Below are positions 3,205 to 25,243 of a stretch of DNA of 32,000 nucleotides, in pieces. Position numbers and translations under genes: made by a program. A model generated the notes under the pieces. It did no database searches and was not told where the DNA came from. It worked only from the letters and a program-made list of their open reading frames with translations. Position 1 is the first letter of the stretch, and each line of letters starts with the position of its first letter. The DNA comes from Pseudothioglobus sp. nBUS_23 (GTDB taxonomy: Bacteria > Pseudomonadota > Gammaproteobacteria > PS1 > Pseudothioglobaceae): the NCBI RefSeq assembly GCF_051201565.1, contig NZ_CP179200.1:420001-452000 (forward strand). Reading direction: 5' to 3'.

Positions 3205-3241
3205 AGATAATACTTATAGTGATTCCAGTATAACTAAATCA

Positions 3242-4123
3242 ATGCACTGGAATCAAATCTCTTTTGAAGTCAATAAGCAGCAAGCTGATCTAGTCTCGGA
3301 GATTTTAATGGGTCTTGGGAGTATTTCAATCTCTTATTCTGATAGCCAAGACAATGCAATCTTTGAACCTCCTGTCGGGGAGACTCCTCTTTGGGAGTCA
3401 ATTCAAGTTAAAGCCCTATTCCAATCAGAAGTGGATATTAATCTAGTTGCTGACACATTAAGTGAGAGCTGTAATATTAAAATAATTGACTCTTTAAAAG
3501 TAGAGGATAAAATTTGGGAGGAGGAGTGTCAAAAGGATTTTCCCTCTATGCAGTTTGGAAAAAATCTTTGGGTCTGCCCATCATGGGATTCAAAAAAAAT
3601 GAGTTCAGAAGATGCAATAGTTATTAACATGGACCCTGGATTAGCCTTTGGAACTGGGACTCATCAAACGACAAGTCTATGTTTAGAATTTTTGGATGAA
3701 AATCCTCCAATTGGTTTAACTGCCATTGATTTTGGTTGTGGTACAGGAATTTTAGCTATTGCCGCTGCAAAATTAGGCGCCATAAGGGTTACAGCTATAG
3801 ACAATGATCCTCAGGCTGTAACTTCAAGTTATGAAAATGTTAAAAAAAATCATTGTGAAGATATCGTTAAAACTCTTCATACAGCTGAAAATTTTAAATA
3901 CAAGCCTTGCGATTTATTAATGGCCAATATACTTGCTAACCCTATCATTGAGTTTGAGCCTTTATTTTCAGAAATAGTCAAACCCAATGGGACTATTGTT
4001 CTATCAGGAATTCTTGAGGAGCAAGTCGAGAAAGTTATAGATTGCTATTCCAAAAATTTCAATAATATTAAAACTGAGAATAAGAGTGAGTGGTTCAGAA
4101 TTAGTGCTTCAAGAATCACCTAA
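3242..4123 (+). CDS. prmA: Ribosomal protein L11 methyltransferase
   Basis: SAM-binding motif DFGCGTGILAIAAAKLGA and the IDNDPQAV motif. Starting at ATG 3242 (MHWNQISFEV...) gives 293 aa, matching the usual PrmA N-terminus and length. The track start at 3197 overlaps alaS and adds 15 non-conserved residues. Confidence 0.9.
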   Translation: MHWNQISFEVNKQQADLVSEILMGLGSISISYSDSQDNAIFEPPVGETPLWESIQVKALFQSEVDINLVADTLSESCNIKIIDSLKVEDKIWEEECQKDFPSMQFGKNLWVCPSWDSKKMSSEDAIVINMDPGLAFGTGTHQTTSLCLEFLDENPPIGLTAIDFGCGTGILAIAAAKLGAIRVTAIDNDPQAVTSSYENVKKNHCEDIVKTLHTAENFKYKPCDLLMANILANPIIEFEPLFSEIVKPNGTIVLSGILEEQVEKVIDCYSKNFNNIKTENKSEWFRISASRIT

Positions 4124-4138
4124 GAAATAGAATGGTCC

Positions 4139-4339
4139 TTAACCCCCGCCAACAGCATTAATGACCTCAACCCTATCTGAGCTCTTTAAGAGGTAAGACT
4201 GATGTTTCGACTTTGGAATAATTGCCTCATTAACTTCGATGGCGATTCTTATATTTTTATAACCTAATTCAGCAATAAGATCTTGGATATTTGAATCTTC
4301 TGGAATTGATATTTCTTCACCATTGACAATTATTTTCAC
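4139..4339 (-). CDS. thiS: ThiS-family ubiquitin-like sulfur-carrier protein (66 aa, GTG start)
   Basis: MKIIVNGE...IEVNEAIIPKS...DRVEVINAVGGG. Length, beta-grasp pattern and the C-terminal Gly-Gly are typical of ThiS. No thiG or thiF is adjacent. Confidence 0.85.
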   Translation of the reverse strand: MKIIVNGEEISIPEDSNIQDLIAELGYKNIRIAIEVNEAIIPKSKHQSYLLKSSDRVEVINAVGGG

Positions 4340-4368
4340 AAATGTATAGAGTTTGTTTATTAAATTAA

Positions 4369-4396
4369 ATTATAACATTGGTTTGTGAAATTCAAG
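4369..4396 (-). promoter_or_regulatory. Putative sigma70 promoter for thiS
   Basis: The minus strand reads cTTGAAT-(15/16 nt)-TATAAT. The -10 is the complement of 4369-4374 and the -35 region is the complement of 4390-4396. The -10 lies about 30 nt upstream of the thiS GTG (4339). Confidence 0.4.
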
Positions 4397-4416
4397 ATAA
4401 TTTAATGATAAACACA

Positions 4417-4425
4417 TGGTAAAAT
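4417..4425 (+). promoter_or_regulatory. Putative extended -10 promoter for carAB (TGgTAAAAT)
   Basis: TGGTAAAAT at 4417-4425, about 36 nt upstream of the carA TTG start. It is followed by a strong SD (AAGGAG, 4448-4453). No convincing -35 is present. Confidence 0.35.
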
Positions 4426-4460
4426 TTCCCGTGTTTTGAACCCCAAAAAGGAGTAATACT

Positions 4461-5582
4461 TTGCCTCAAATTGCCATATTAGCACTAGAAGATGGCAAAG
4501 TTTTTTGGGGGAAATCAATTGGTTCTATTGGTCACACAGTTGGTGAAGTAGTCTTTAATACTGCAATGACAGGTTACCAAGAAATTCTGACTGACCCATC
4601 CTATTGTCAACAGATAGTAGCTCTAACCTATCCTCACATTGGTAACACAGGAATCAACATAGTTGATGAGGAGTCTTCTAATGTCTATGCATCAGGACTC
4701 ATCATCAGGGATCTGCCTTTAGTGCAAAGTAATTGGCGCTCAGAGATGAGTCTCGATAATTACCTTTCGAGCAATAATATTGTTGCGATATCTAATATCG
4801 ACACGCGCGCCCTGACAAGACATCTGAGAATCAATGGAGCACTCAAAGGCTGCATTATGGCAGCAAATTCAATAAACTCAGATTTAGCAATTCAGTATGC
4901 AAAAGATTTCGCTGGCCTTAAAAATATGGATCTGGCAAAAGTTGTTTCTACCTCCAAAACCTACTCCTTTAATCAAGGAACATTTGATATTGCTAATTCC
5001 ACTTTTAATAAAGAGCCTTCTAAATTTAAAGTAGCTGTTTACGACTATGGTGTGAAGAAAAATATACTAAGAATGCTGGTAGATAGGGGATGTGAACTGA
5101 CGGTTTTTAACGCACAAGCCTCACTTCATAACCTGCTAGCTATGAATCCGGATGGTGTTTTTCTCTCTAATGGTCCTGGAGACCCTGAGCCATGCGACTA
5201 TGCAATTCAAAATATTAAAGAATTACTAGAGAAGAATATTCCCATCTTTGGAATATGTCTTGGGCACCAGCTTTTATCCCTGGCATCTGGCGCCAGAACA
5301 GAAAAAATGAAGTTTGGCCATCACGGCGCAAATCATCCTGTTCAAGATTTAAAGTCTGAAAGAGTGATGATTACTTCGCAAAATCATGGCTTTGCAGTCT
5401 CTGAAAAAGACTTGCCCGAATCGATTGAGATTAGCCATCGCTCATTATTCGATCAAAGTATTCAGGGGATAAGAGTTAAGAATAAACCTGCATACAGTTT
5501 TCAAGGTCACCCAGAAGCATCACCTGGCCCACATGATGTTAGTTACTTGTTTGATGAATTTATAGAGCTTATGAAACAATGA
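4461..5582 (+). CDS. carA: Carbamoyl-phosphate synthase small (glutaminase) subunit
   Basis: 373 aa. TTG start preceded by AAGGAG; E. coli carA is also known to initiate at UUG. Class-I amidotransferase catalytic motif GICLGHQLL. Confidence 0.97.
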
Positions 5583-5613
5583 ATCTTAACTTTTCATTTT
5601 ATTTTATTTAGAT

Positions 5614-8600
5614 ATGCCTAAAAGACAGGACATTAAAAGTATTCTAATCATCGGAGCAGGGCCAATTGTCATAGGACAGGCTTGTGAGTTTGATTATTCT
5701 GGCGCACAGGCATGCAAGGCTCTTCGTGAAGAGGGTTACAGAGTTATTCTGGTTAATTCAAATCCTGCCACCATTATGACTGACCCCAAAATGGCTGATG
5801 CAACCTACATTGAGCCAATTGAATGGAAAACTGTTGAGAAAATCATTGAAAAAGAGAAACCTGATGCACTTCTTCCAACTATGGGTGGGCAAACAGCTCT
5901 GAATTGTGCATTAGATCTTGATCGTCATGGTATTCTTGAAAAACACGGCGTTGAGATGATTGGTGCAAATAAACAGGCAATTGATAAGGCTGAGGATAGA
6001 GAATTGTTTCGCCAGGCGATGCTCAAAATTGGTCTTGACATGCCTAAGGCAGCCATCGCACATTCTCTTGAAGATGCCTTAAAAGTTCAAGAGGAAGTCG
6101 GCTTCCCGACAATCATTCGGCCCTCATTTACAATGGGTGGCTCTGGAGGAGGCGTTGCTTTCAATAAGGAGCAATTTGTTGAGATATGTCAACGTGGCTT
6201 AGATCTATCTCCAACCAATGAGTTGCTCATAGAAGAGTCTATTCTTGGATGGAAAGAGTTCGAGATGGAGGTAGTTAGAGATAACAAAGATAACTGCATT
6301 ATCATCTGCTCAATAGAAAACTTTGACCCAATGGGTATTCATACTGGAGACTCGATTACAGTTGCACCAGCTCAAACGCTGACCGATAAAGAGTACCAGA
6401 TTATGCGCAACGCTTCACTCATGGTGCTCAGAGAAATTGGAGTTGACACTGGAGGTTCAAACGTACAGTTTGCTGTCAATCCCGATAACGGTAGATTGAC
6501 AATTATTGAAATGAATCCAAGAGTCTCCAGATCTTCTGCTTTAGCATCAAAAGCGACTGGTTTTCCTATTGCAAAAGTAGCAGCTAAGCTTGCCGTGGGA
6601 TATACACTAGACGAACTTGATAATGATATTACTGGGGGAAAGACTCCTGCGTCATTTGAACCTTCAATTGATTACGTCGTTACTAAGATTCCAAGATTCG
6701 CTTTTGAAAAATTCCCCCAGGCAGATGACAGGTTAACAACCCAAATGAAGTCAGTTGGCGAAGTCATGGCTATGGGGTCAACCTTCCAGGAGTCTCTTCA
6801 AAAGGCACTTAGAGGACTCGAGACTGACAAGTCCGGCCTCGACCCAATAATAGATATTACTGCTGATGACTCTAAAGCAAAAATAAGAAGCGAACTTCTC
6901 TCTGCTGGTGCGGAAAGAATATTCTATTTGGCAGATGCCTTTAGAATGGGTATGACTCTTCAAAATGCATTCGAACTATCAAAGATTGACCCATGGTTTT
7001 TGGCTCAAGTCGAAGACATTGTTTTGTCAGAAAAGTCAATCGAAGGTAAAGAGATTGAGGATATCCAACCTGAAACCATTAGAGAACTGAAGCAAAAAGG
7101 TTTTTCTGATAAGAGGTTATCTGAAATCTTGAATTGTACTGAAGAGGTCTTTCGTAAAAAGAGACTAGCACTTGATATTCAACCTGTTTTCAAAAGGGTG
7201 GATAGCTGCGCGGCTGAATTTGACACTGAAACTGCTTATCTTTACTCAACTTATCAGTCAGAGTGTGAGGCAAACCCATCAGATAACAAAAAAATAATGA
7301 TTTTAGGCGGTGGTCCAAATAGAATAGGACAAGGCATTGAGTTTGACTACTGCTGTGTGCATGCTTCTTTGGCGCTTCAAAAAGTTGGCTATGAAACTAT
7401 CATGGTTAACTGTAACCCAGAAACGGTCTCTACCGACTATGATGTCTCAGATAGGCTTTATTTTGAGCCACTGACACTTGAGGATGTGCTCCAGGTTATC
7501 GAAATTGAAAAACCTGAAGGCATCATTGTACATTATGGTGGGCAAACTCCACTGAAGCTTGCAGCAGCCCTTGAAAAGAGTGGTGCAAATATTATTGGGA
7601 CTAGTCCTGATTCTATTGATTTAGCTGAAGATAGAGAACGTTTTCAGAAGATGATTCAAAAGTTAAATCTTAAGCAGCCAGTGAATGATACTGCAAGATC
7701 TCAAGATGAAGCAGTAGAAATAGCTAACTCGATAGGTTTTCCTTTAGTTGTTAGGCCATCTTACGTCTTGGGCGGTCGGGCAATGGAAATTGTTTATGAT
7801 AATGATAGCCTAGAGCGTTATATGACAACTGCTGTCAAGGTATCCAATGATTCCCCTGTCCTTCTTGACTCATTCTTAGATCATGCAATTGAGGTGGATA
7901 TCGATGTCATTAGTGATGGAAAAGACATTGTTATTGGCGGCATAATGGAGCATATTGAGCAAGCAGGCATTCATTCAGGAGATTCAGCTTGCTCGCTTCC
8001 ACCACATTCTCTACCCTCAAGTGTTCTTGATGAAATGAGAAGACAAGTCAAGCTAATGGCGAAAGAATTGAAAGTTATTGGGCTAATGAATACTCAGCTT
8101 GCATATCAGGATGAAGAAATTTATGTGATCGAGGTCAATCCTCGAGCTTCGAGAACAGTTCCTTTTGTATCAAAAGCTACTGGAGCTCCCTTGGCGAATA
8201 TTGCTGCGAGAGTGATGGCTGGAATTTCTTTGGAAGAGCAAAACTTTACGAGTGAAATTATACCTGTGCACTATTCTGTGAAGGAGTCAGTCTTTCCATT
8301 TAATAAATTTTTAGGAGTAGATCCATTTTTGGGTCCAGAGATGAGATCAACTGGCGAGGTGATGGGTGTTGGAAAAGACTTTCCTTCAGCTTTCGACAAG
8401 GCCTTTCTTGCAGCCGGTGATGTAGTTCCTACAAGCGGAAAAGTTCTTGTGAGTCTTAGAACACTAGATCGTGGAAGATTAGTTGAACTCGGTGAAAGGC
8501 TTATCAGTCAGGGTTTCGAGATTGTTGCTACACGTACAAACCAAGAAATACTCTCACAAGCTGGTCTTGAATGTACAATGGTAAATAAAGTTTCAGAAGG

Positions 8601-11831: not shown

Positions 11832-12719
11832 CTACCCTCTAGGGTGATGTTTCTGATGTTGAGTTTTGAGATGCGCGTTCTGAATATGGGTGTAGAGCTG
11901 AGTGCTTGAGATATCACTATGACCAAGCATCAGTTGAACTGAGCGCAAGTCAGCTCCTTTTTGAACAAGATGAGTAGCAAAGGCATGCCTCAGTGAGTGT
12001 GGTGAGATGGTTTTGTCAATTCCAGCTTGAGCGGCATAACCCTTTATAATATAAAAGAAATTTTGCCTTGACATCGCGCTTCCACGATTTGATAGAAAGT
12101 AACTATCACATTGGCCATTTTTTAAAAGCAGGGGTCTGACATTTTTTTCATATGCAGCTAAATAATCAATTGAAATTTCACCAAGTGGCAACATTCTCTC
12201 TTTATTTCCCTTTCCATGAACACGAATAAACTCATCTTTCAGATTGATATTATGAAAGCTTAAATTTATAAGTTCTGAAACCCTGAGGCCACAAGAATAG
12301 AGAAGTTCAATCATAGCGCGATCCCTTTGGCCAATAGTAGAATTTATATTAGGTGCATTCATTAGCTTTTCTACCTCTTGAATATTTAAAAAAATAGGTA
12401 ATTTTTTGTCTAATTTTGGATAATTCATTTGATCTGTTGGATCATTAGTGATGACTTGATGCTCTATTAAATACTGAAAGAAAGAGTGGAGGCACGTGAG
12501 AATTCGTGATTGAGATGAGGCGCTTAGCTTAGAGTCTTTTCGATATGAGAAATATTCATTAACCAAGAGTCTATTGACATTTTCAAATGGGATATCCTTT
12601 AGCCAATTACTAAAAATTTTAAGATCAGAGCGATAGGCGCTTAGAGTATTTTGACTCGCTCCAGTGGTTAGCCAGTAAAAATCAATAAATTGGTCAATGA
12701 GTTGATTATTCATCACCAT
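11832..12719 (-). CDS. xerD: Site-specific tyrosine recombinase XerD
   Basis: 295 aa, collinear with E. coli XerD over its whole length. Examples: ...NTLSAYRSDL..., ELLYSCGLRVSEL, HSLRHAFATHL, LLGHSDISSTQLYTH, and the characteristic C-terminus QHQKHHPRG. Confidence 0.93.
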   Translation of the reverse strand: MVMNNQLIDQFIDFYWLTTGASQNTLSAYRSDLKIFSNWLKDIPFENVNRLLVNEYFSYRKDSKLSASSQSRILTCLHSFFQYLIEHQVITNDPTDQMNYPKLDKKLPIFLNIQEVEKLMNAPNINSTIGQRDRAMIELLYSCGLRVSELINLSFHNINLKDEFIRVHGKGNKERMLPLGEISIDYLAAYEKNVRPLLLKNGQCDSYFLSNRGSAMSRQNFFYIIKGYAAQAGIDKTISPHSLRHAFATHLVQKGADLRSVQLMLGHSDISSTQLYTHIQNAHLKTQHQKHHPRG

Positions 12720-12792: not shown

Positions 12793-13143
12793 TTACTTTT
12801 TATTAAGTTTTTCTTTAATTCTAGCAGCCTTACCTGTAAGACCTCGTAAATAATATAGCTTAGCTTTTCTAACTTTACCACTTCTTTTAACAGTAACGCT
12901 ATCAATCATTGAAGAGTGAGTTTGGAAGACTCTCTCAACACCTTCACCATGAGAGATTTTACGAACTGTAAAAGCAGAGTTTAGCCCTCTGTTTTTCTTG
13001 GCAATCACAACACCCTCAAAGGCTTGAAGTCTTTGGCGATTTCCTTCGCGAACTTTCACCTGAACAACAACCGTGTCACCCGCAGAAAATTCAGGAATGT
13101 CTGTTCTGAGTTGCTCACTTTCAATTTGATCAATTAAATTCAC
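12793..13143 (-). CDS. rplS: 50S ribosomal protein L19
   Basis: 116 aa. GTG start with an AGGTG SD. The sequence [47 protein letters not shown] is typical L19. Confidence 0.97.
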
Positions 13144-13207: not shown

Positions 13208-13281
13208 GAATCTATTGTCTTAAATCACCCATAAAAATAGATGTTTTTGATGATATTTTTTAAATGTTTTTCATGATATTA

Positions 13282-13290
13282 TGAGATAAT
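13282..13290 (+). promoter_or_regulatory. Putative extended -10 (TGaGATAAT) promoter for the gltD-dsrCMK operon
   Basis: TGAGATAAT at 13282-13290, 27 nt upstream of the ATG at 13318. The SD AAGGAAGG is at 13309-13316. No good -35 is present. Confidence 0.3.
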
Positions 13291-13317
13291 GTTGCGCACA
13301 AAAATTAAAAGGAAGGC

Positions 13318-14757
13318 ATGGGTAAAGCAACTGGATTTTTAGAGCTAGACAGGCAAGTTGAGTCATATCGCGAGGTTGATGTTCGCATAAATGATTATGA
13401 TGAAATTTTCTCAGGTAGCCATAATTTAGATCTGCTTCAAGAACAAGGTTCAAGATGCATGGATTGCGGTGTTCCTTTTTGTCAATCATCAAATGGATGT
13501 CCAATTGATAATCTAATTCCTGAATGGAATGATCTAGTTTATAAAAACGAATGGCAAGAGGCACTTGAGCGCCTTGAGAAAACTAATAATTTTCCTGAGT
13601 TCACCGGAAGAGTATGTCCTGCTCCATGCGAAGGTTCATGTGTCCTCGGTCTTAACAACCCTGCCGTTACAATTAAAAATATTGAATTAGCAATTGTCGA
13701 TAAGGGCTTTGAAGAAGGATGGATTAAGCCCAAAGTGATTGAGTCTCGCTCAGGAAAAAATATTGCAATAGTTGGATCAGGCCCTGCAGGTCTTGCAGCT
13801 GCAGATGAGCTGAATAAAATGGGACACTCTGTGAAAGTTTATGAGAGAAGTGATAGAATTGGTGGTCTATTGATGTATGGTATACCCAACATGAAACTTG
13901 GTAAAGATGTTGTTGAGCGCCGAGTACAATTGTTGGAGAGTGAAGGAATAGAATTTATTACCAATGTAGATATTGGAAAAGATTTAACTACCAAAGAGCT
14001 TAAGGAGACTTGCGATGCTGTTATTTTTGCAACCGGCGCCACTCAAGCGCGTGACTTGCCAGCAGAAAACAGAGATGCAAAAGGTATTTATCCTGCAATG
14101 GATTTCCTAACATCAAATACCAAAAGCCTTCTTGATAGTGGTCAGCCAGATCAAAGTGATTTATCTGCAAAAGGTAAAAATGTGATTGTTATAGGCGGTG
14201 GTGATACTGGGACTGACTGTATTGGAACTTCTTTGAGACAGGGCGCTAAATCAATCATTAATTTTGAATTAATGAGTCGCCCTCCTGAGGATCGTTCAGA
14301 CAATAACCCATGGCCAGAGTGGCCGGTAATCTTTAGAGTAGACTATGGCCACGAAGAGTCGAGTCAAGTTTTTGGTGAGGATCCAAGACATTACCAGCTT
14401 CTTACTAAGGCATTCATCAAAGATACTGATGGCAATGTTAAAGGTATAAAAACAGTAAACGTCGATTTGATTAAGGGCAAGTTAACTGAGATTGAAGGAA
14501 CTGAAAAAACTTGGGATGCTGAACTCGTTTTGTTGTCGATGGGCTTTTTATCTCCAGAACATTATTTAAGTGACGATTCAGAAATCGAGCTTGATCAGAG
14601 AGGCAACTACCTATCCGAACATGGGGATTATAAAACATCAAAAGATGGGATTTTTTCGGCAGGTGACTGCAGGAGAGGCCAATCATTGGTCGTCTGGGCA
14701 ATAAATGAAGGCCGAGGAGTAGCCTCGAGTGTGGATGATTTTCTAGCAAATTCTTAA
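13318..14757 (+). CDS. gltD: GltD-type NAD(P)H-dependent Fe-S flavoprotein (glutamate synthase small-subunit family)
   Basis: 479 aa. N-terminus [12 protein letters not shown]. Two Cys clusters ([16 protein letters not shown] and CPAPCEGSC). Two dinucleotide folds ([11 protein letters not shown] and [11 protein letters not shown]). The GltD-like C-terminal end is [18 protein letters not shown]. No gltB large subunit is adjacent. Confidence 0.88.
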
Positions 14758-14771
14758 AGGTAATAACAGTT

Positions 14772-15095
14772 ATGGCAGAAATATTAGGTGCTGAAGTTGA
14801 TGAAGAGGGCTACTTGCTTAAGGTGTCTGATTGGACAGCTGATATTGCACAGGCTATGTCTGAGGAAGACGGTATAGAACTATCACCTGAGCATTGGGAG
14901 GTCATAAATTTTCTTCAGGAGTATTATGAGGAATATGAATTTGCTCCCGCAGTAAGGGTTCTTACAAAAGCTATTGCAAAAAAGCTTGGAAATGACAAGG
15001 GAAATTCTCGATATCTTTATTCACTTTTTCCATATGGCCCTGCAAAGCAAGGATGTCGATTCGCTGGTTTGCCAAAACCAACAGGCTGTGTTTGA
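14772..15095 (+). CDS. dsrC: DsrC-family sulfur-relay/redox protein with both C-terminal cysteines
   Basis: 107 aa. ...LSPEHWEVINFLQEYYEEY... is the DsrC/TusE fold. The C-terminal arm is QGCRFAGLPKPTGCV, with Cys95 and penultimate Cys106 spaced by 10 residues. It lies 14 nt after gltD. Confidence 0.88.
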   Translation: MAEILGAEVDEEGYLLKVSDWTADIAQAMSEEDGIELSPEHWEVINFLQEYYEEYEFAPAVRVLTKAIAKKLGNDKGNSRYLYSLFPYGPAKQGCRFAGLPKPTGCV

Positions 15096-15159
15096 ATAAA
15101 CATTGTTGGTTTTGCCACAAAGCATTGACTTCCATTTTTTATCTAAGAGATAGAGCCAT

Positions 15160-15933
15160 ATGTCACTGATAAGTATTTTTTTAATTTTCTTTTTTTATAT
15201 CTCTGCCCTGATATTTATATCTGGATTATCATATAAACTGATTCAATATAGGAGAACACCTGCTCCACTTAAGATTCCAATTGCACCATCTGCACTGGAT
15301 AAAAAAGGAGTGTTGTTAAGATACTTTCGCGAGATTTTTTTGTTTGCAAGCCTGTTCAAAGCCAACAAATGGACCTGGCTTTTTGGATGGTGTTTTCATT
15401 TAGCTTTGGCCTTATTATTTTTTCGACATTTAGTTTATTTTTGGCCAGGTGAAGTGCCTTTAATTCTTTATAAAACTGAACCATTAAAATATGCCGCTTA
15501 TCCACTCATTTTTGGTCTTTTAGGGTTGTTAGCTAGAAGAGTTTTTGTTGATAGGGTTCGTTACATATCTGCACCTTCCGATTACCTGATGTTGCTCGTA
15601 TTTATATTTATTGCTTTAACCGGAATGATAATGACTTTTGCGAATTATCATCCCAATATACTTATGGTTAAAAATTTTGCTTCAGGTTTGATTACCTTTA
15701 AGTGGTCAGAATTGCCTGGAGAAATTATCTTTGTATTCCATATTCTTCCTGTTTTTTGTATTATTGCTATTTTCCCAATATCTAAGTTACTGCACGCACC
15801 AGGTGTATTTTTTGCACCTACCTTTAATCAGGTGGATAATGCACGAAAGAAAAGACATCTCTCTGATTGGGCCTCTAAAAAAGAAGATAATTTGGAAATA
15901 AATCTTGAATCCAAAAATTTAAAGGATGAATAA
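15160..15933 (+). CDS. dsrM: DsrM-type (NarI/HdrE-like) membrane di-haem b quinol-interacting subunit
   Basis: 257 aa with about 5 hydrophobic helices. Four candidate haem-ligand histidines lie in helices (FHLALALLFFRHL; FHILPV; KLLHAPG), as in the NarI/DsrM family. Confidence 0.8.
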   Translation: MSLISIFLIFFFYISALIFISGLSYKLIQYRRTPAPLKIPIAPSALDKKGVLLRYFREIFLFASLFKANKWTWLFGWCFHLALALLFFRHLVYFWPGEVPLILYKTEPLKYAAYPLIFGLLGLLARRVFVDRVRYISAPSDYLMLLVFIFIALTGMIMTFANYHPNILMVKNFASGLITFKWSELPGEIIFVFHILPVFCIIAIFPISKLLHAPGVFFAPTFNQVDNARKKRHLSDWASKKEDNLEINLESKNLKDE

Positions 15934-15935
15934 TC

Positions 15936-17474
15936 TTGTCAACTGATAATCAAATTAAACTTCCAACATATGTTGAAACGCCATCAATAAGAAAAGATTC
16001 TATGGCTGGTGATGGCCCATTTAAGGCTTCAGTTGAGATTCAAAATAACCTTGGATTCCCTGGAGAAAAGGTTGAGAATTGGCAACAAGTCGCCATCAAT
16101 AAAATGGCTGAGACTAAGTCGAAATATAAATCGGTTCAAGTTTTCTTGGATAGCTGTATGAAATGCGGTGCATGCACAGATAAGTGCCACTACTTTTTAG
16201 GAACAGCTGACCCAAAGAACATGCCAGTTGCGCGACAGGACTTATTTAGAAGTGTCTACAGAAGACACTTTACGTTTGCCGGAAAGTATTTTCCAAGACT
16301 GGTTGGAGCTAAGGACTTTGATGAAGATATGTTGGATGATTGGTATAACTATTTTCATCAATGCTCACAATGCAGAAGATGCGCTGTATTCTGTCCGTCA
16401 GGAATAGATACTGCAGAGATTTCAATGGCAGCAAGAGAGGTGATGAATGTCATTGGAGTGGGTCAAAAATATACTAATCAAATTTTAGGTAAAGTTAAGA
16501 AAATTGGAAACAATCTTGGGATGCCTGAGCCTGCGCTTAAAGATACCCTCATGGATCTTGAAGAAGAGATTAAAGAAGATACTGGTGTTGATGTTAAGTT
16601 GCCTATAGATATTAAAAATTCTGAAATATTGATGGTCTCGCCTTCAGCTGATTTTTTTGCTGAGCCTCATATTGATGGACTCATTGGATATGCAAAAGTT
16701 TTTCATGAGAGTGGAGTCAGTTGGACGCTAAGTTCCTATGCTTCAGAGGCCGCTAACTTTGGAATGTTTATTGGGAATTATGATGTCATGAGAGAAGGTG
16801 CTCTAAGAATTCGAAAGGCTGCACTGGATTTAAATGTAAAGCGAGTCGTTATTGGAGAGTGTGGACACGCTTGGCGAGTAGCATATAGTTTTTGGAATAC
16901 TCTCTCTGGTATAGGTAGTGGTGCAGATGATGAGTATGCCATGAGACTTCAAAATCAACTTGATAGTCAATATCCTCAGCCTCAACATATGATTGAATTT
17001 ACATATGATTTAATTAAAAATAATAAATTAACATTTGAAAAATCAAACAATGACCATCGAGTAGTCACATTCCATGATTCTTGTAATGTTGCTCGAGGCA
17101 GTAATATGGGTGACATAGAAAATGGTCAATTTATCTTACCTAGAGAGGTAATAAAAGCTGCCTGCAATAACTTTATAGATATGCCCAAAAATACAATAAA
17201 GTCCTCTACTTTTTGTTGTGGTGGTGGTGCGGGACTTCTCACTGATGACCTTATTGACCTCAGAATAAAAGGCGCTAAACCGAGGATGCACGCACTCAGA
17301 AAAAGTGAGCAAGAAAGTGGAGTGAACACCTTAGCTGCTATTTGTGCTATTTGTAAATCACAGTTTTCAAAAGTTCTACCAAATTATGATTTTGATCCTT
17401 ACATGGTCGTAAGCGTTCATCAGCTGGTAAGTGATGCAATTGTTCTTAGTGAGTCATTAAAGCAAAAAGACTAA
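15936..17474 (+). CDS. dsrK: DsrK-type (HdrD-like) Fe-S/CCG-domain catalytic subunit
   Basis: 512 aa. TTG start 2 nt after dsrM, with an AAGGA SD. Two ferredoxin motifs (CMKCGACTDKC and CSQCRRCAVFC). CCG-domain signatures (FHDSCNVARG and TFCCGGGAGLL). Long stretches are collinear with DsrK of sulfur oxidisers, e.g. HMIEFTYDLIKNNKL...NDHRVVTFHDSCN. Confidence 0.87.
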   Translation: MSTDNQIKLPTYVETPSIRKDSMAGDGPFKASVEIQNNLGFPGEKVENWQQVAINKMAETKSKYKSVQVFLDSCMKCGACTDKCHYFLGTADPKNMPVARQDLFRSVYRRHFTFAGKYFPRLVGAKDFDEDMLDDWYNYFHQCSQCRRCAVFCPSGIDTAEISMAAREVMNVIGVGQKYTNQILGKVKKIGNNLGMPEPALKDTLMDLEEEIKEDTGVDVKLPIDIKNSEILMVSPSADFFAEPHIDGLIGYAKVFHESGVSWTLSSYASEAANFGMFIGNYDVMREGALRIRKAALDLNVKRVVIGECGHAWRVAYSFWNTLSGIGSGADDEYAMRLQNQLDSQYPQPQHMIEFTYDLIKNNKLTFEKSNNDHRVVTFHDSCNVARGSNMGDIENGQFILPREVIKAACNNFIDMPKNTIKSSTFCCGGGAGLLTDDLIDLRIKGAKPRMHALRKSEQESGVNTLAAICAICKSQFSKVLPNYDFDPYMVVSVHQLVSDAIVLSESLKQKD

Positions 17475-18595
17475 TCAAGTTTTTGATAAAAACTTACTAT
17501 TCCTTCATAAATTGACTGAGCAATTTTTTGTTGTTGACTCTTGTTAGTCAAGCGTTTTTCTTGAGTAGGGTTTGATATAAAAGCAGTCTCAACTAATACA
17601 GAAGGAATAGAAGGCGACTTGAGGACAACAAAGTTAGCTTTTTGAGGTATTTTTTTGTGAATAGGACCAACTTTACTTAGTTGAGAAATTATTTCTTGAG
17701 CCAATTGAAATGATTGTTTTTCTTTATCTTTTCGAGAATAGTCAGTCAATATACTCTTTAAAAATTGATCATTGTCAATGACTTTCTCAACGCCACCAAA
17801 CTGATCAACCACGTTTTGCGAATCCTCGAGCTGCCTAGCAAGTTTACTATTATTCCCTTTTTCACTTAATATATATACAGAGGCTCCTTTTGCACTAACG
17901 CTCTCAACTGAATCGGCATGAATAGAAATAAACATCGATGCCTTTTGTTTTTGGGCTATGGTTAGTCTTTTTGTGAGGGGAATATAATAATCTCCTCCTC
18001 TACTTAGTACCGCATTAAAATCCCTATTTTTATTAATGATGGCTACAAGCTTTTTTGCTATTGCCAAATTTACATTTTTTTCTAGTGACTTATTTCTTCC
18101 TACCGCTCCAGAATCCTCGCCTCCATGACCGGCATCGACCAGAATAATTTGTTGGTTTTTTATCGAAGGCGGCTTGACTGGCTCTAAGATTTTTTTTGTA
18201 GGCTTTGGTTCTGAGTCAATAATATCTACTACCAGTCTATGATGTTTATATTTAGCGTTTGGGATGAGAGTAAAGTGCTTTACATTAAATTTACGATTGA
18301 TATGAACGATTAATTTGATGGTGCTTTTTTCGCGCTTAATTCTTACTTTTTGTATCCGATCGTCTTTAAAAAAAATATTTGAAAAGGTTTCAGATAGAAC
18401 TTCCGCATCATCAAAGCTAATAATGACATAATCATTAGAACTCTTAATATTGAAAAGAGTATCCTCTTCTTTATCGATAACTATTCGAGTATGGTCAGGC
18501 GCAGACCAATATCTAAAATCATAGAGTGTTGTTTTGTCTTCCCCAGAAGCAATAGATGAGAAAAAAATTAAAAGAAGACTTATCCAATTACGCAT
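17471..18595 (-). CDS. amiB: N-acetylmuramoyl-L-alanine amidase (AMIN domain + Amidase_3)
   Basis: 374 aa. Signal peptide MRNWISLLLIFFSSIASG. An AMIN-like N-domain. Zn-amidase motifs VDAGHGGEDSGAVG, ISIHADS and VLVETAFISNP. The tsaE-amiB linkage matches E. coli. Confidence 0.92.
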   Translation of the reverse strand: MRNWISLLLIFFSSIASGEDKTTLYDFRYWSAPDHTRIVIDKEEDTLFNIKSSNDYVIISFDDAEVLSETFSNIFFKDDRIQKVRIKREKSTIKLIVHINRKFNVKHFTLIPNAKYKHHRLVVDIIDSEPKPTKKILEPVKPPSIKNQQIILVDAGHGGEDSGAVGRNKSLEKNVNLAIAKKLVAIINKNRDFNAVLSRGGDYYIPLTKRLTIAQKQKASMFISIHADSVESVSAKGASVYILSEKGNNSKLARQLEDSQNVVDQFGGVEKVIDNDQFLKSILTDYSRKDKEKQSFQLAQEIISQLSKVGPIHKKIPQKANFVVLKSPSIPSVLVETAFISNPTQEKRLTNKSQQQKIAQSIYEGIVSFYQKLD

Positions 18596-19038
18596 TTTTG
18601 AATTGATCTGCCTAATTTAGATTCAAATAAAATTTGAGCTTCTCTAGAGTCTCCATTGCCGCTAAGTTTGATTGAAATATCAGCATTTGCTATTGATCCC
18701 TTTCCTAATTCTGGCCATTCAATTAACTGAAGACTATTTGATTTAAGATAATCTCGAATACCAATATATTCTAACTCTTCAGGATCAGTTAGTCGATAAC
18801 AATCAAAGTGGTGGATATCTGCTTGATCATTTTGGTATGATTCCACTAAAGTATAAGTTGGACTTTTGACCTTATCAAAGCCAAAATATCTTATAAAAAA
18901 TTGAGCAAAAGTAGTTTTTCCAACTCCTAAATCACCAACTAAATAGATTACGCAGGGAGATTTTATTTTAGAGCAGCACTCAGCAATTGTTTCTGCTAGC
19001 TCTTTAGTCTCATTAAGATTTTTTAATTTTAAATCCAA
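18580..19038 (-). CDS. tsaE: tRNA t6A37 biosynthesis ATPase TsaE (YjeE)
   Basis: 152 aa. Walker A GDLGVGKTTF and the HFDCYRL...IEWPE motifs. Confidence 0.93.
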   Translation of the reverse strand: MDLKLKNLNETKELAETIAECCSKIKSPCVIYLVGDLGVGKTTFAQFFIRYFGFDKVKSPTYTLVESYQNDQADIHHFDCYRLTDPEELEYIGIRDYLKSNSLQLIEWPELGKGSIANADISIKLSGNGDSREAQILFESKLGRSIQKCVIG

Positions 19039-21710: not shown

Positions 21711-21797
21711 GCCAGTGTGGTGGAATTGGTAGACACGCCGGATTCAAAATCCGGTTCCTTCACGGGAGTGACGGTTCGAGCCCGTCCACTGGTACCA
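21711..21797 (+). tRNA. tRNA-Leu (anticodon CAA), class II with long variable arm, CCA encoded
   Basis: Acceptor stem GCCAGTG/CACTGGT. Anticodon stem-loop CCGGA-TTCAAAA-TCCGG gives anticodon CAA. Variable arm TTCCTTCACGGGAGT. T-arm GACGG-TTCGAGC-CCGTC. Discriminator A followed by CCA. Confidence 0.95.
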
Positions 21798-21913
21798 AAT
21801 ATGAATTGAAAGATTATTCATATAATTGAATTTTGGGGTATCACTAGGATTAAAACTAATTATTTGATATTAAAATTTAAACCATAGAATCAATTTTTTT
21901 ATGGCTATCTATT

Positions 21914-22147
21914 ATGGACAATAATTTACTCAGTGAAGCAATCAACTTAACCCTTTTTGGGATGGGGTTTGTATTTGTATTTTTGGCTTTAATGGTGGTT
22001 TTGACTAGGTTTATGTCAGCTGCTGTCTTAAAAATCCAGCCTTTTGCACCCAGTAATTCTGTTGCACCAATCCAAACGGATAATTTAATAGATGAGGATA
22101 CAAAATCAATCATTAAGAAAGCAATTAAATTGCATACTGGAGCTTAA
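21914..22147 (+). CDS. oadG: Oxaloacetate decarboxylase gamma subunit
   Basis: 77 aa. A single N-terminal TM helix (LTLFGMGFVFVFLALMVVL). It sits directly upstream of oadA and oadB. Confidence 0.88.
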   Translation: MDNNLLSEAINLTLFGMGFVFVFLALMVVLTRFMSAAVLKIQPFAPSNSVAPIQTDNLIDEDTKSIIKKAIKLHTGA

Positions 22148-22150
22148 TAT

Positions 22151-23935
22151 ATGTCAAATGATGTCAACACACAACCCGTAGGAATTACTGAACTTGTTTT
22201 AAGAGATGGACACCAGTCACTTTTCGCAACTAGGATGAGAATTGATGATATGCTGCCCATTGCTGAAAAGATAGATAAAGTGGGGTATTGGTCAACGGAA
22301 TCATGGGGCGGTGCTACTTTTGATGCATGTATTCGTTTTTTGGGTGAAGACCCTTGGGATAGAATTAGAGAAATTAGCAAAGCGATGCCTAATACGCCGC
22401 AGCAGATGCTGCTTAGAGCACAGAATTTATTAGGCTATCGTCATTACGGTGACGACGTGGTAAGGAATTTTGTTGATCGTTGCGCAGAAAATGGTGTTGG
22501 CGTTTTACGCATTTTTGATGCAATGAACGATATGCGAAACCTAAAAACAGCGGTTGACCAAACGGTAAAAGTTGGTAAGCATGCTCAGGGCACTATTTCT
22601 TACACACTTAGTCCAGTTCACACTACAGAACTTTGGATTGATATGGCTAAGCAAATTGAAGATATGGGCGCTCATTCACTCTGTATTAAAGATATGGCTG
22701 GACTTCTTCAGCCTTATGTTGCCTATGACCTTGTGAAAAAACTGAAGAAGGCAATTGATATTCCTATACAGCTTCATGCCCATGCAACAACAGGCCTCTC
22801 AACAGCAACCTTAATTAAATCAATTGAGGCGGGCATTGATCGTGTAGATACATCAATTGCTTCGATGAGCATGACATATGGGCACTCTTCGACTAATGCA
22901 GTGGTCTCGATTTTGGATCATGGTCCTCGCAAAACTGGCATCGATATGGAGCAGTTAGAAGAGATTGATGCTTACTTTAGAAAGGTGCGTCCAAAATATG
23001 CCAAATTTGAAGGTTCATTGAAAGGTATTGATCCTCGTATATTGTTGGCTCAAGTGCCTGGTGGCATGTTAACAAATATGGAAAGCCAGCTTCGGGAGAA
23101 TAATGCTCTAGATAGACTCGATGAGGTATTAAAAGAGATCCCACGCGTAAGAGAAGATCTAGGTTATATTCCTCTTGTAACACCAACATCTCAGATTGTG
23201 GGTACTCAAGCTGTTATGAATGTTTTACTGGGTGAGCGTTATAAATCAATTGCAAAAGAGTCAGCAGGAATACTTAAGGGTGAATATGGCGCATCACCAG
23301 CGCCTGTCAATGCTGAACTTCAGGCCCGTGTGCTAGATGGTGGTGAGGCAATTACCTGTCGTCCAGCAGATAATATTGATCCAGAAATGGATACCTTGGA
23401 AGCAGAATTCGATTCAATCATTGCAGAAAAGGGTATCAAACTAGAAAATGAAAAAATTGATGATTTGTTAATTTACATTCTATTTCCGCAAGTGGGAATG
23501 CAGTTCTTAGAAAATCGAAATAATCCTGATTTCTTCGAGCCAGTTCCGCAGGCTCCAAGTGAAGGGCCTAAAGAAGATGGTGTTTATACAGTCAAACATA
23601 ATGGCCAAGAGTATGTTGTTGAAGTGAAATCTGGTGGAGATATTTCTTCAATCCAGGTTGCTGGACAGGCATCTGCAGTGCCTCAAGCATCAGCGCCTCA
23701 AGCAGCACCAACAGTAGTTAATGCTGAAGACATTCCAGCACCACTTGCTGGTAATATCTGGAAGGTTTTGGTTTCACCAAACCAACAAATTAACGAAGGA
23801 GACACGCTTGTTATTCTTGAGGCAATGAAAATGGAAACTGAAGTTAAAGCTGCTCGATCAGGTACAGTTGTAGCCGTCAATGTTAGTGAGGGTGATCAGG
23901 TTTCTGCTGGACAGGCAATAATTTCTTTAGCTTAA
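22151..23935 (+). CDS. oadA: Oxaloacetate decarboxylase alpha subunit (carboxyltransferase + biotin carrier)
   Basis: 594 aa. HMGL-like TIM barrel ([10 protein letters not shown]...). An Ala/Pro-rich linker. C-terminal biotinyl-lysine motif EAMKMET. Confidence 0.95.
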
Positions 23936-23941
23936 TCAATT

Positions 23942-25243
23942 ATGGAAAATTTATACACTCTGTTGGAAAACTCCGGGCTCTATCAGCTAGACTTTGGTTC
24001 TGGGGCGATGATATTAGTTGGTCTTCTGTTGTTGTACCTTGCAATCGTAAAAAAATTTGAACCCTTGCTTTTACTGCCAATTGGATTTGGTGCAATATTA
24101 AGTAATATCCCTGGTGCTGGGCTTGCTTTATCTGCTATGGGAAGTGCAATTTATGCAGCTGATCCTGAAGTTTTAAGTGCTTTGGCTAACAGCCTTAATT
24201 TGGCGAGTTGGAATACAGCTTCAGAGATTTATGATGCATTTAAAGAAAGTTCTGGTGCTCAGCACGCTTTGGCAATTCAAACTGTAAGTGATTTGGGATA
24301 TAGGGATGGAATGTTGTACACTTTTTATACTATTGCAATTGCTAGTGGGATAGCTCCTTTAATCATTTTTATGGGTGTTGGTGCGATGACAGACTTTGGA
24401 CCACTTTTGGCCAATCCCAAGACTTTACTTCTGGGAGCTGCAGCACAATTCGGTATTTTTGCAACATTGTTAGGTGCGATTGCGTTGACATCACTAGGTG
24501 TATTTGACTTTAGTCTAAAGCAAGCAGCAGCGATTGGTATTATTGGAGGTGCGGATGGACCAACCTCTATTTATGTTGCTTCAAAATTAGCTCCTGAATT
24601 GCTTGGTGCTATTGCAGTTGCCTCATACTCTTATATGGCACTAGTGCCACTCATTCAGCCGCCAATTATGAAGTTTTTTACGACAGAAAAAGAGCGTCAA
24701 ATACAAATGGTACAACTGCGTGAAGTGTCAAAGACTGAGAAAATTGTATTTCCAATCATGCTATTGTTGCTTGTTGGTTTATTGCTTCCTGATGCCGCCC
24801 CTCTTCTTGGAATGTTTGCTTTTGGAAATCTTATGAAAGAGTGTGGTGTGGTTGACCGTTTAAGTGATACAACGCAAAATGCTCTCATTAATATTGTGAC
24901 CATTTTTCTTGGACTGGCTGTTGGTTCTAAATTAATTGCAGCAGAGTTCTTAAAACTAGATACTTTAGGAATTTTATTATTAGGTATGGTTGCCTTTGCT
25001 ATCGGAACTATGAGCGGATTATTGATGGCGAAGTTGATGAATGTATTTAGCAAAACAAAAATCAACCCACTGATTGGTTCTGCTGGTGTTTCTGCAGTTC
25101 CAATGGCTGCTCGAGTTTCAAACAGAGTGGGTCTTGAATCTAACCCTCAAAACTTCTTATTGATGCACGCAATGGGTCCAAACGTCGCTGGTGTTATTGG
25201 ATCGGCAATCGCTGCAGGAATTATGATTCAGTTTTTAGCCTAG
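23942..25243 (+). CDS. oadB: Oxaloacetate decarboxylase beta subunit (Na+ pump)
   Basis: 433 aa, polytopic. OadB/GcdB/MmdB family patterns: [12 protein letters not shown] and [13 protein letters not shown]-like [15 protein letters not shown]. Confidence 0.95.

Follow-up and report, generated by a model that had tools for sequence, protein, structure and literature searches.

A compact gltD-dsrC-dsrM-dsrK locus

DsrC and DsrMK are usually seen as no more than accessories to the sulfite reductase DsrAB. We describe here a locus in Pseudothioglobus sp. nBUS_23 at which dsrC, dsrM and dsrK are found next to gltD and no dsrAB is present. The Pseudothioglobus lineage corresponds to Arctic96BD-19, the sister clade of SUP05 within the Thioglobaceae. 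The locus lies within a stretch of 32,000 nucleotides (NZ_CP179200.1, positions 420,001 to 452,000), which we refer to as the window, and coordinates are those of the window unless another locus is named.

Inspection of the open reading frames (ORFs) shows that gltD, dsrC, dsrM and dsrK all run on the + strand and follow one another at distances of 14, 64 and 2 nucleotides. The first gene, gltD (13318-14757, +), encodes a protein of 479 residues which scores 710 bits on TIGR01317 and is an orthodox small, or beta, subunit of glutamate synthase (GOGAT). It is separated from dsrC by a 14-nucleotide spacer, AGGTAATAACAGTT (14758-14771, +; junction A), which carries an AGG similar to a Shine-Dalgarno sequence and sits where full-cluster relatives have dsrABEFH; we take it to be a deletion junction. 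The 107-residue DsrC (14772-15095, +) matches PF04358 with 145 bits and has the two redox-active cysteines, Cys95 (CysB) and Cys106 (CysA). DsrM (15160-15933, +; 257 residues; PF02665) is the NarI-like di-haem b subunit in the membrane that would interact with quinone or quinol, and DsrK (15936-17474, +; 512 residues; NF045796, 560 bits) the HdrD-like cytoplasmic catalytic subunit. The 2-nucleotide junction between dsrM and dsrK suggests that translation of dsrK may be coupled to that of dsrM. At the far end the stop codons of dsrK and of the convergent gene ami overlap by 4 nucleotides (17471-17474, no strand assigned; junction B), which would be the second deletion junction.

The block is framed by housekeeping genes on the - strand. 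On the left are xerD (11832-12719; TIGR02225, XerD) and rplS (12793-13143; TIGR01024, L19), and on the right an N-acetylmuramoyl-L-alanine amidase of the AmiA/B/C family, ami (17471-18595), and tsaE (18580-19038; TIGR00150, TsaE). Profile matches of the ORFs gave no dsrAB, dsrEFH, dsrL, dsrJOP, apr, sat, sox or gltB anywhere in the 32-kb window. An earlier note on this DNA had described the four co-oriented genes, their junctions, the opposite-strand neighbours and the lack of any other dsr, apr or sat gene in the window, and in all of this it was accurate. Its family calls, a GltD-type protein, a DsrC with both cysteines, a NarI-like DsrM and a DsrK, agree with the Pfam and NCBIfam matches and with the residues described below. 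NCBI names the four products glutamate synthase subunit beta, TusE/DsrC/DsvC family protein, 'respiratory nitrate reductase subunit gamma' and DsrK. Two antisense ORFs lie inside or overlapping gltD (13271-13564, -, 97 residues, and 14471-14749, -, 92 residues); these are likely to be spurious, and related contigs have no gene called there.

The same site holds a complete dsr cluster in related genomes

A search of a genome collection with DsrK gave 80 loci, onto which the four proteins of the block and the four flanking proteins were mapped. The order seen in the window, xerD-rplS-gltD-dsrC-dsrM-dsrK-ami-tsaE, recurs in 28 species-level loci, which we call compact loci. They come from Pseudothioglobus and from a deep-sea lineage of the DUCF01 type, and their DsrK is 79-100% identical to that of the window. 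When contigs from metagenomes or genomes were retrieved through rplS, independently of dsrK, 10 of 10 had the trio as well. The linkage is therefore recurrent in the absence of dsrAB rather than a one-off. In the assembly collection 1538 blocks are indexed with exactly this rplS protein, and the 90% cluster of DsrK has 1178 members. The 120 DsrK matches listed in a search for stand-alone dsrCMK beyond the Thioglobaceae were all Thioglobaceae-like, with at least 75% identity.

A further 25 loci, from SUP05, Thioglobus, Ruthia, Ruthturnera, Vesicomyosocius, Thiodubiliella and Bathymodiolus symbionts, share these anchors and have two blocks in addition, one between gltD and dsrC and the other after dsrK. 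The order at the site in these full-cluster loci is xerD-rplS-gltD-dsrABEFH-dsrCMK-dsrLJOPN-(ami)-tsaE. The gap between gltD and dsrC is about 3.8 kb and holds dsrA, B, E, F and H; in locus L060 (2981-8797 of that locus) it is about 5.8 kb, so that some 2 kb of extra DNA lies in or beside dsrABEFH. On the 3' side of dsrK there is a gene with about 30% identity to GltD, which is dsrL, followed by about 5 kb, and in those loci that reach far enough tsaE, or ami and tsaE, is seen beyond dsrN. For the complete Ruthia genome (L056), matches to curated models assign the genes 5' of dsrC to dsrA, B, E, F and H, and those 3' of dsrK to dsrL (654 residues), dsrO, dsrP and a cobB-like dsrN, while an ORF of 127 residues in the position of dsrJ has no family match and is likely to be dsrJ. 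The place of junction B is thus occupied in the full-cluster relatives by dsrL, J, O, P and N together with an ORF of 113 residues, about 6 kb in all. Each of the eleven gap genes is present in 25 of the 25 full-cluster loci, save the 113-residue ORF, which is present in 24 of 25.

No remnant of a gap gene was found in the compact loci, where the best non-paralogous match had an E-value of 0.01 and fell inside another gene, nor did the flanking DNA, covered for up to 10 kb to either side, hold paralogous or relocated copies of the deleted genes. In a tree of DsrC, DsrM and DsrK, with betaproteobacterial full clusters as the outgroup, the compact loci form one clade which is sister to the full-cluster clade. 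The canonical proteobacterial gene order is dsrABEFHCMKLJOPN. Given this order, and the position of the compact clade as sister to the full-cluster clade, the parsimonious explanation is that two deletions took place in the ancestor of the compact clade. Two clean deletions, of dsrABEFH and of dsrLJOPN, would then have occurred in an ancestor shared by the Pseudothioglobus and DUCF01 lineages, and the first of these would have put gltD beside dsrC. Genome streamlining would subsequently have shrunk the spacer between them to 13-16 nucleotides.

The GltD protein resembles GOGAT small subunits rather than DsrL

The earlier note had proposed that the four genes form a self-contained module, with the GltD-like flavoprotein standing in for DsrL and connecting NAD(P)H with DsrC and, by way of DsrMK, with the quinone pool. 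GltD and DsrL do belong to one flavoprotein superfamily. Both have an N-terminal domain for two clusters followed by the FAD and NAD(P) Rossmann domains, and the GltD of the window is 30% identical to the DsrL of Ruthia. This similarity is, however, limited to the flavoprotein body, with which the window protein ends, and the linker and C-terminal ferredoxin (Fer4) domain of DsrL are missing. On the GOGAT small-subunit model TIGR01317, by contrast, the window protein (PF14691 and PF07992) scores far above the cutoff of 448 bits. Its best homologues of solved structure are the GOGAT small subunits of B. subtilis (7MFM, 7mfm_I), matched over the full length with 579 bits, and A. brasilense (6s6s_G; 317 bits), whereas NfnB-type proteins reach only about 200 bits. 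The gltD that lies between rplS and dsrA in Ruthia encodes a protein which is 69% identical to that of the window without a single gap and which scores 695 bits on TIGR01317. The Ruthia DsrL reaches 723 bits on NF009410.

In Löffler et al. (2020; PMC7596348) DsrL has three defining features, and the authors describe GltD as a 'functionally clearly different' relative. They also identify rDsrAB, and not DsrC or DsrMK, as the physiological partner of DsrL. The window protein has no C-terminal Fer4 domain and, according to published surveys, its lineage has no dsrAB. On these grounds, and on those of its TIGR01317 score, its solved homologues and its identities to DsrL and to the Ruthia gltD product, we rejected its assignment as a DsrL-like or an NfnB/SudA-like protein. 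Because gltD is found at the same place in genomes that have the full cluster and a DsrL of their own, it would already have been the left-hand neighbour in the ancestor of the family, and its adjacency to dsrC arises because dsrABEFH was deleted. From its sequence and position we take the 479-residue protein to be a conventional small subunit of GOGAT, encoded beside the dsr cluster since the ancestor of the family, and not a substitute for DsrL. It fits the known GOGAT small subunits (7MFM; 2VDC/6S6S) in its full-length match and its score above the TIGR01317 cutoff. It differs from them in its surroundings, as gltD of this type adjoins no gltB in the Thioglobaceae loci examined; none was found in the window or in any of the 20-kb loci.

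A few loci show irregularities around gltD. In two dsrAB-less metagenome-assembled genomes from the deep sea (L028, at 1909-7132 of that locus, and the equivalent region of L031) about 6 kb is inserted between rplS and gltD. We considered gltB as a candidate for this insert and rejected it; the insert is a five-gene operon for the catabolism of Phe and Tyr through homogentisate, encoding an aromatic amino-acid hydroxylase, HPPD, homogentisate dioxygenase, fumarylacetoacetase and a GST-like isomerase. Insertions are tolerated at the rplS-gltD boundary in these loci, with gltD-dsrCMK unbroken. In two assemblies of Thiodubiliella symbionts gltD is fragmentary, being in two pieces or only partly matched (L071, 3404-4848; L051, 4215-5036), and the DsrK match of L071 begins late. 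This could be due to pseudogenisation in the symbionts or to assembly error.

Spacers and transcription

In favour of a four-gene unit is the arrangement of the genes: they are co-oriented, the gltD-dsrC junction is short, and in crown Pseudothioglobus the spacer is kept at 13-16 nucleotides and starts with the Shine-Dalgarno-like AGG. In the basal dsrAB-less lineages (L023-L028, L031 and L035), however, the same spacer measures 132-184 nucleotides, and most of them, though not all, have a hairpin directly 3' of gltD. Since the basal spacers are still this long, the 14-nucleotide junction is a later compaction and the operon-like appearance secondary to genome streamlining. Closely spaced but unrelated genes are nothing unusual in this streamlined window; carB and greA, for example, are 3 nucleotides apart. 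Tight junctions in streamlined genomes should therefore be treated with caution as a sign of functional coupling. Taken with the orthology of GltD to the gltD product found beside full clusters with a real DsrL, this makes the four-gene module quite improbable. The adjacency of gltD and dsrC is instead a by-product of the loss of dsrABEFH.

The basal spacers were compared with the old promoter region between gltD and dsrA and with the dsrH-dsrC junction, giving median z values of about 0-2.5 and no consistent match. No structured element was detected in the 64-nucleotide spacer between dsrC and dsrM (z = 0.12), and promoter and terminator scans from 12.7 to 18 kb gave counts equal to the shuffled expectation. 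With only 13-16 nucleotides between gltD and dsrC there is no room for an intergenic dsrC promoter in nBUS_23. With this layout the transcripts of dsrCMK probably either continue from gltD by read-through or start at a promoter within the 3' end of gltD. At the other end of the trio, the spacing between dsrK and ami in the compact loci ranges from -28 to +18 nucleotides.

Family assignment and cofactor residues of DsrC, DsrM and DsrK

DsrC matches PF04358 well above the cutoff of 24.9 bits, and TIGR03342 with 155 bits (cutoff 53.5). Its C-terminus, QGCRFAGLPKPTGCV, ends in PTGCV, with Cys106 as the penultimate residue and Cys95 located 11 residues before it. Both cysteines are invariant in the 28 compact, the 25 full-cluster and the 5 outgroup loci (58/58). 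The definition of DsrC also takes in an organism with DsrAB; here DsrAB is found neither in the window nor, according to the published surveys, in the lineage.

In the JGI/KEGG annotation the protein is a 'tRNA 2-thiouridine synthesizing protein E', and so DsrC might be thought a TusE-type sulfur carrier for tRNA 2-thiouridine synthesis, with the role of DsrMK unrelated to it. It does match the TusE equivalog model, with 132 bits, but this is below the cutoff of 191. CysB, which TusE does not require, is invariant. The TusBCD/DsrEFH relay is absent from the lineage (bioRxiv 10.1101/2020.12.11.421487), and the equally strong selection on the adjoining dsrM and dsrK, themselves separated by only 2 nucleotides, would be left unexplained. 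We regard a TusE function as quite improbable, and a DsrC that works with DsrMK remains the preferred interpretation.

For DsrK the NF045796 score is to be compared with a cutoff of 400 bits and with 578 bits for the Ruthia control. The two CX2CX2CX3C [4Fe-4S] motifs (Cys74/77/80/84 and Cys143/146/149/153) and the cysteines of the CCG domain (Cys383/427/428/470/473) are invariant in all 58 loci, although the match of this domain to PF02754 is weak (20.2 bits against a cutoff of 20.6). DsrM matches PF02665 with 41.8 bits. Its best NCBIfam match is the DsrM model NF038037, with 117 bits (cutoff 300). A bona fide DsrM, that of the complete Ruthia cluster, also falls below this cutoff with 156 bits, so that the cutoff misses DsrM of the oxidative type and the score of the window protein is uninformative. 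His80/90 and His194/212 are invariant in the 58 loci and have the NarI spacing of 10 and 18. A further histidine, His164 (at about 15649-15651), is present in all full-cluster and outgroup sequences and replaced by tyrosine in 7 of the 28 dsrAB-less loci; among the histidine and cysteine positions checked this is the sole clade-specific loosening. Overall the three proteins are 74-77% (DsrK), 63-75% (DsrC) and about 54-66% (DsrM) identical to their full-cluster orthologues.

The complement of subunits is nevertheless much reduced. The five-subunit DsrMKJOP complex includes dsrJ, dsrO and dsrP, which are found in 25 of 25 full-cluster loci and in none of the compact loci, and from the set that makes up a reverse-Dsr system, dsrAB, dsrEFH, dsrL and dsrCMK(JOP), the locus has dsrC, dsrM and dsrK only. 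It is a derivative of the reverse-Dsr sulfur-oxidation system and not a member of it.

Selection on dsrC, dsrM and dsrK

The ratio of non-synonymous to synonymous substitutions (dN/dS) was calculated pairwise by the method of Nei and Gojobori within the 28 compact loci, using pairs with dS between 0.1 and 1.5. The values are 0.04 for dsrC, 0.10 for dsrM and 0.04 for dsrK, with 0.06 for gltD; the flanking genes give 0.04 (rplS), 0.07 (xerD), 0.08 (ami) and 0.13 (tsaE). In the full-cluster clade dN/dS is 0.11 for dsrC, 0.09 for dsrM and 0.04 for dsrK, and as the compact loci give comparable figures, selection on dsrCMK has not been relaxed. The trio is kept under strong purifying selection and is not a decaying relic. 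Such selection in genomes without dsrAB argues for a function of DsrC and DsrMK that is independent of DsrAB.

If dsrC, dsrM and dsrK were simply non-functional leftovers that have yet to decay after the loss of dsrAB, this would accord with the disappearance of all their canonical partners from the locus, and with the report of van Vliet et al. (2020; PMC8359478) that the cultured relative PS1 does not oxidise sulfur. The ORFs are, however, intact in the 28 species-level loci and in the 10 contigs anchored on rplS. The dN/dS values for dsrC and dsrK equal that of the gene for ribosomal protein L19, and the Fe-S cysteines, haem histidines and DsrC cysteines are all invariant. Moreover, the flanking DNA has been cut to a few nucleotides, yet 2.7 kb of dsrCMK has been retained. 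We consider decay pending to be very unlikely.

Sulfur metabolism of the lineage in published surveys

Several surveys describe the genomes of this lineage. Ansorge et al. (bioRxiv 10.1101/2020.12.11.421487) report Arctic96BD genomes without sox, dsrAB or the 2-thiouridine relay (Tus/DsrEFH), in which aprAB and sat are kept and the use of taurine is uniquely encoded. Van Vliet et al. describe the clade as aerobic organoheterotrophs that are missing most genes for sulfur oxidation. Dede et al. (2022; PMC9123188) did not detect rDSR, the reverse Dsr pathway, in Pseudothioglobus metagenome-assembled genomes. In the 2026 nBUS study (PMC13508795) the complete set of sat, aprAB and dsrAB is present in 82 of 216 Thioglobaceae genomes, none of them Pseudothioglobus, and 67 Pseudothioglobus genomes were scored 'incomplete' for this set. 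In some Pseudothioglobus genomes the Calvin-Benson cycle is encoded almost in full, even though the genus has neither dsrAB nor sox (PMC13508795). This raises the question of the energy source that would drive the cycle, on which the retained dsrCMK, apr and sat may have a bearing.

These surveys support the stand-alone state of dsrC, dsrM and dsrK to which the earlier note had pointed. The findings that the note had named as fatal to its claim, a complete dsr cluster at another place or an arrangement seen once and not conserved, are therefore not borne out. The surveys also bear on the possibility that the cluster has been split, in which case the missing genes, dsrAB included, would lie at another place in the nBUS_23 chromosome and the pathway would be a normal reverse-Dsr one. 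In favour of a split, the genome-wide absence of dsrAB is known from published surveys of the lineage. All four independent surveys are nonetheless without dsrAB in Arctic96BD-19/Pseudothioglobus, closed genomes and the 67 genomes of a single study included, and none of the compact loci has a relocated gap gene within up to 10 kb on either side. A split cluster is most unlikely.

The retained dsrC, dsrM and dsrK are neither scored nor mentioned in the surveys cited above for Pseudothioglobus, and two papers on the evolution of Dsr (PMC10504309, PMC11406059) do not cover DsrAB-less lineages or the Thioglobaceae. Surveys that look for dsrAB only will label the pathway 'incomplete' or 'not detected'. 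In public annotation DsrM is called 'respiratory nitrate reductase subunit gamma' by NCBI and JGI, and DsrC is given the TusE name by JGI. Such labels can mislead metabolic reconstructions into spurious calls of narI and denitrification, or of a Tus relay and tRNA thiolation.

A probable remnant of a reverse-Dsr cluster with a maintained dsrCMK trio

Taking these observations together, we interpret the locus as the remnant of an ancestral Thioglobaceae reverse-Dsr cluster (gltD followed by dsrABEFH-CMK-LJOPN), in which gltD is an ordinary GOGAT gene and the dsrCMK trio has been maintained; we put the probability of this at about 80%. What the earlier note had said of a stand-alone, conserved dsrCMK without dsrAB is thereby upheld, while its four-gene unit with GltD as an equivalent of DsrL is not.

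Several points weigh against this interpretation. The DsrC trisulfide or disulfide, which is the accepted substrate of DsrMK, is made by DsrAB, and DsrAB is absent here. The role of DsrC, DsrM and DsrK in Pseudothioglobus is a predicted one. The genome-wide absence of dsrAB rests on published surveys of the lineage, the absence from the window being seen directly. The dN/dS values are pairwise and do not come from a tree-based model. The tight and conserved 13-16 nucleotide junction, with its Shine-Dalgarno-like AGG, is compatible with co-expression, and GltD may have acquired a link to the trio secondarily.

From what is known of these families, the trio most likely still performs the role that DsrMK and DsrC have elsewhere. 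The two b haems of DsrM would exchange electrons with the quinone pool of the membrane, and DsrK would carry electrons through its two [4Fe-4S] clusters to the cluster at the CCG site. There the dithiol of Cys95 and Cys106 of DsrC would be interconverted with the disulfide or trisulfide. This redox cycle would run without DsrAB, DsrEFH, DsrL or DsrJOP. What the clade maintains would thus appear, on the conservation seen in the sequences, to be a DsrAB-independent DsrC:quinone module.

It is tempting to go further and propose that in this aerobic marine heterotroph, which is abundant worldwide, DsrC and DsrMK form an autonomous redox module that does not depend on DsrAB. We advance this tentatively, as a possibility rather than an expectation. 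In one version it would be a DsrC-based sulfane/sulfide/thiol:quinone oxidoreductase passing sulfur to a non-Dsr route that ends at AprAB/Sat; alternatively, the module might recycle a DsrC disulfide or trisulfide formed by another enzyme. Stimulation by thiosulfate and sulfur globules have been described for 'Ca. Thioglobus singularis' (PS1), as summarised in bioRxiv 10.1101/2020.12.11.421487, and an autonomous module, if it exists, could explain these in the absence of sox and dsrAB.

Comparison with known systems

The closest counterpart is the reverse-Dsr cluster dsrABEFHCMKLJOPN(RS), as in Allochromatium vinosum. The compact locus shares with it orthologues of dsrC, dsrM and dsrK of the oxidative type, the gene order and the cofactor residues. 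SUP05, Ruthia, Vesicomyosocius and the Bathymodiolus symbionts carry a full reverse-Dsr cluster at the same chromosomal site, between the same flanking genes. The compact locus differs from these in the absence of dsrA, B, E, F, H, L, J, O, P and N. The hosts also differ, those of the reverse-Dsr cluster being sulfur-oxidising autotrophs and Pseudothioglobus an aerobic organoheterotroph.

The two-subunit DsrMK is accepted as a minimal version of the complex (PMC10504309). It is found, with DsrC and without DsrJOP, in archaeal and Gram-positive sulfite or sulfate reducers (DsrABCMK), which shows that DsrMK can work without JOP (PMC10504309). In these reducers, however, DsrAB is always present and DsrMK is of a basal, reductive type, whereas the DsrMK of Pseudothioglobus is of the proteobacterial oxidative type, occurs without DsrAB and would have arisen by secondary deletion of JOP. 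The heterodisulfide reductases HdrDE and HmeCD resemble DsrMK in combining a NarI-like di-haem b subunit with an HdrD-like CCG Fe-S subunit, so that electrons of the quinol type reduce a disulfide. Their disulfide is CoM-S-S-CoB, whereas the presumed substrate here is the DsrC encoded directly upstream.

The finding is a reduced variant of a known Dsr system and is moderately surprising for a specialist in sulfur metabolism. Its interest lies in the fact that a very abundant ocean clade has kept exactly dsrC, dsrM and dsrK through its whole radiation after losing DsrAB, DsrEFH, DsrL and DsrJOP. Cultured strains with closed genomes (PS1, nBUS_23 and Uisw_041) make the question experimentally tractable.

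Other genes of the window

The remaining genes of the window are housekeeping genes and include alaS, prmA, carAB, greA, an aminotransferase, GNATs, a Ca/Na antiporter, hemD and a tRNA-Leu, as well as oadGAB, lolCDE, lpxK, kdsB and folD. At 21711-25243 the tRNA-Leu(CAA) is followed by an operon for a Na+-translocating oxaloacetate decarboxylase, with oadG (called in locus L001), oadA and oadB, a sodium-motive energy module in this Pseudothioglobus heterotroph.

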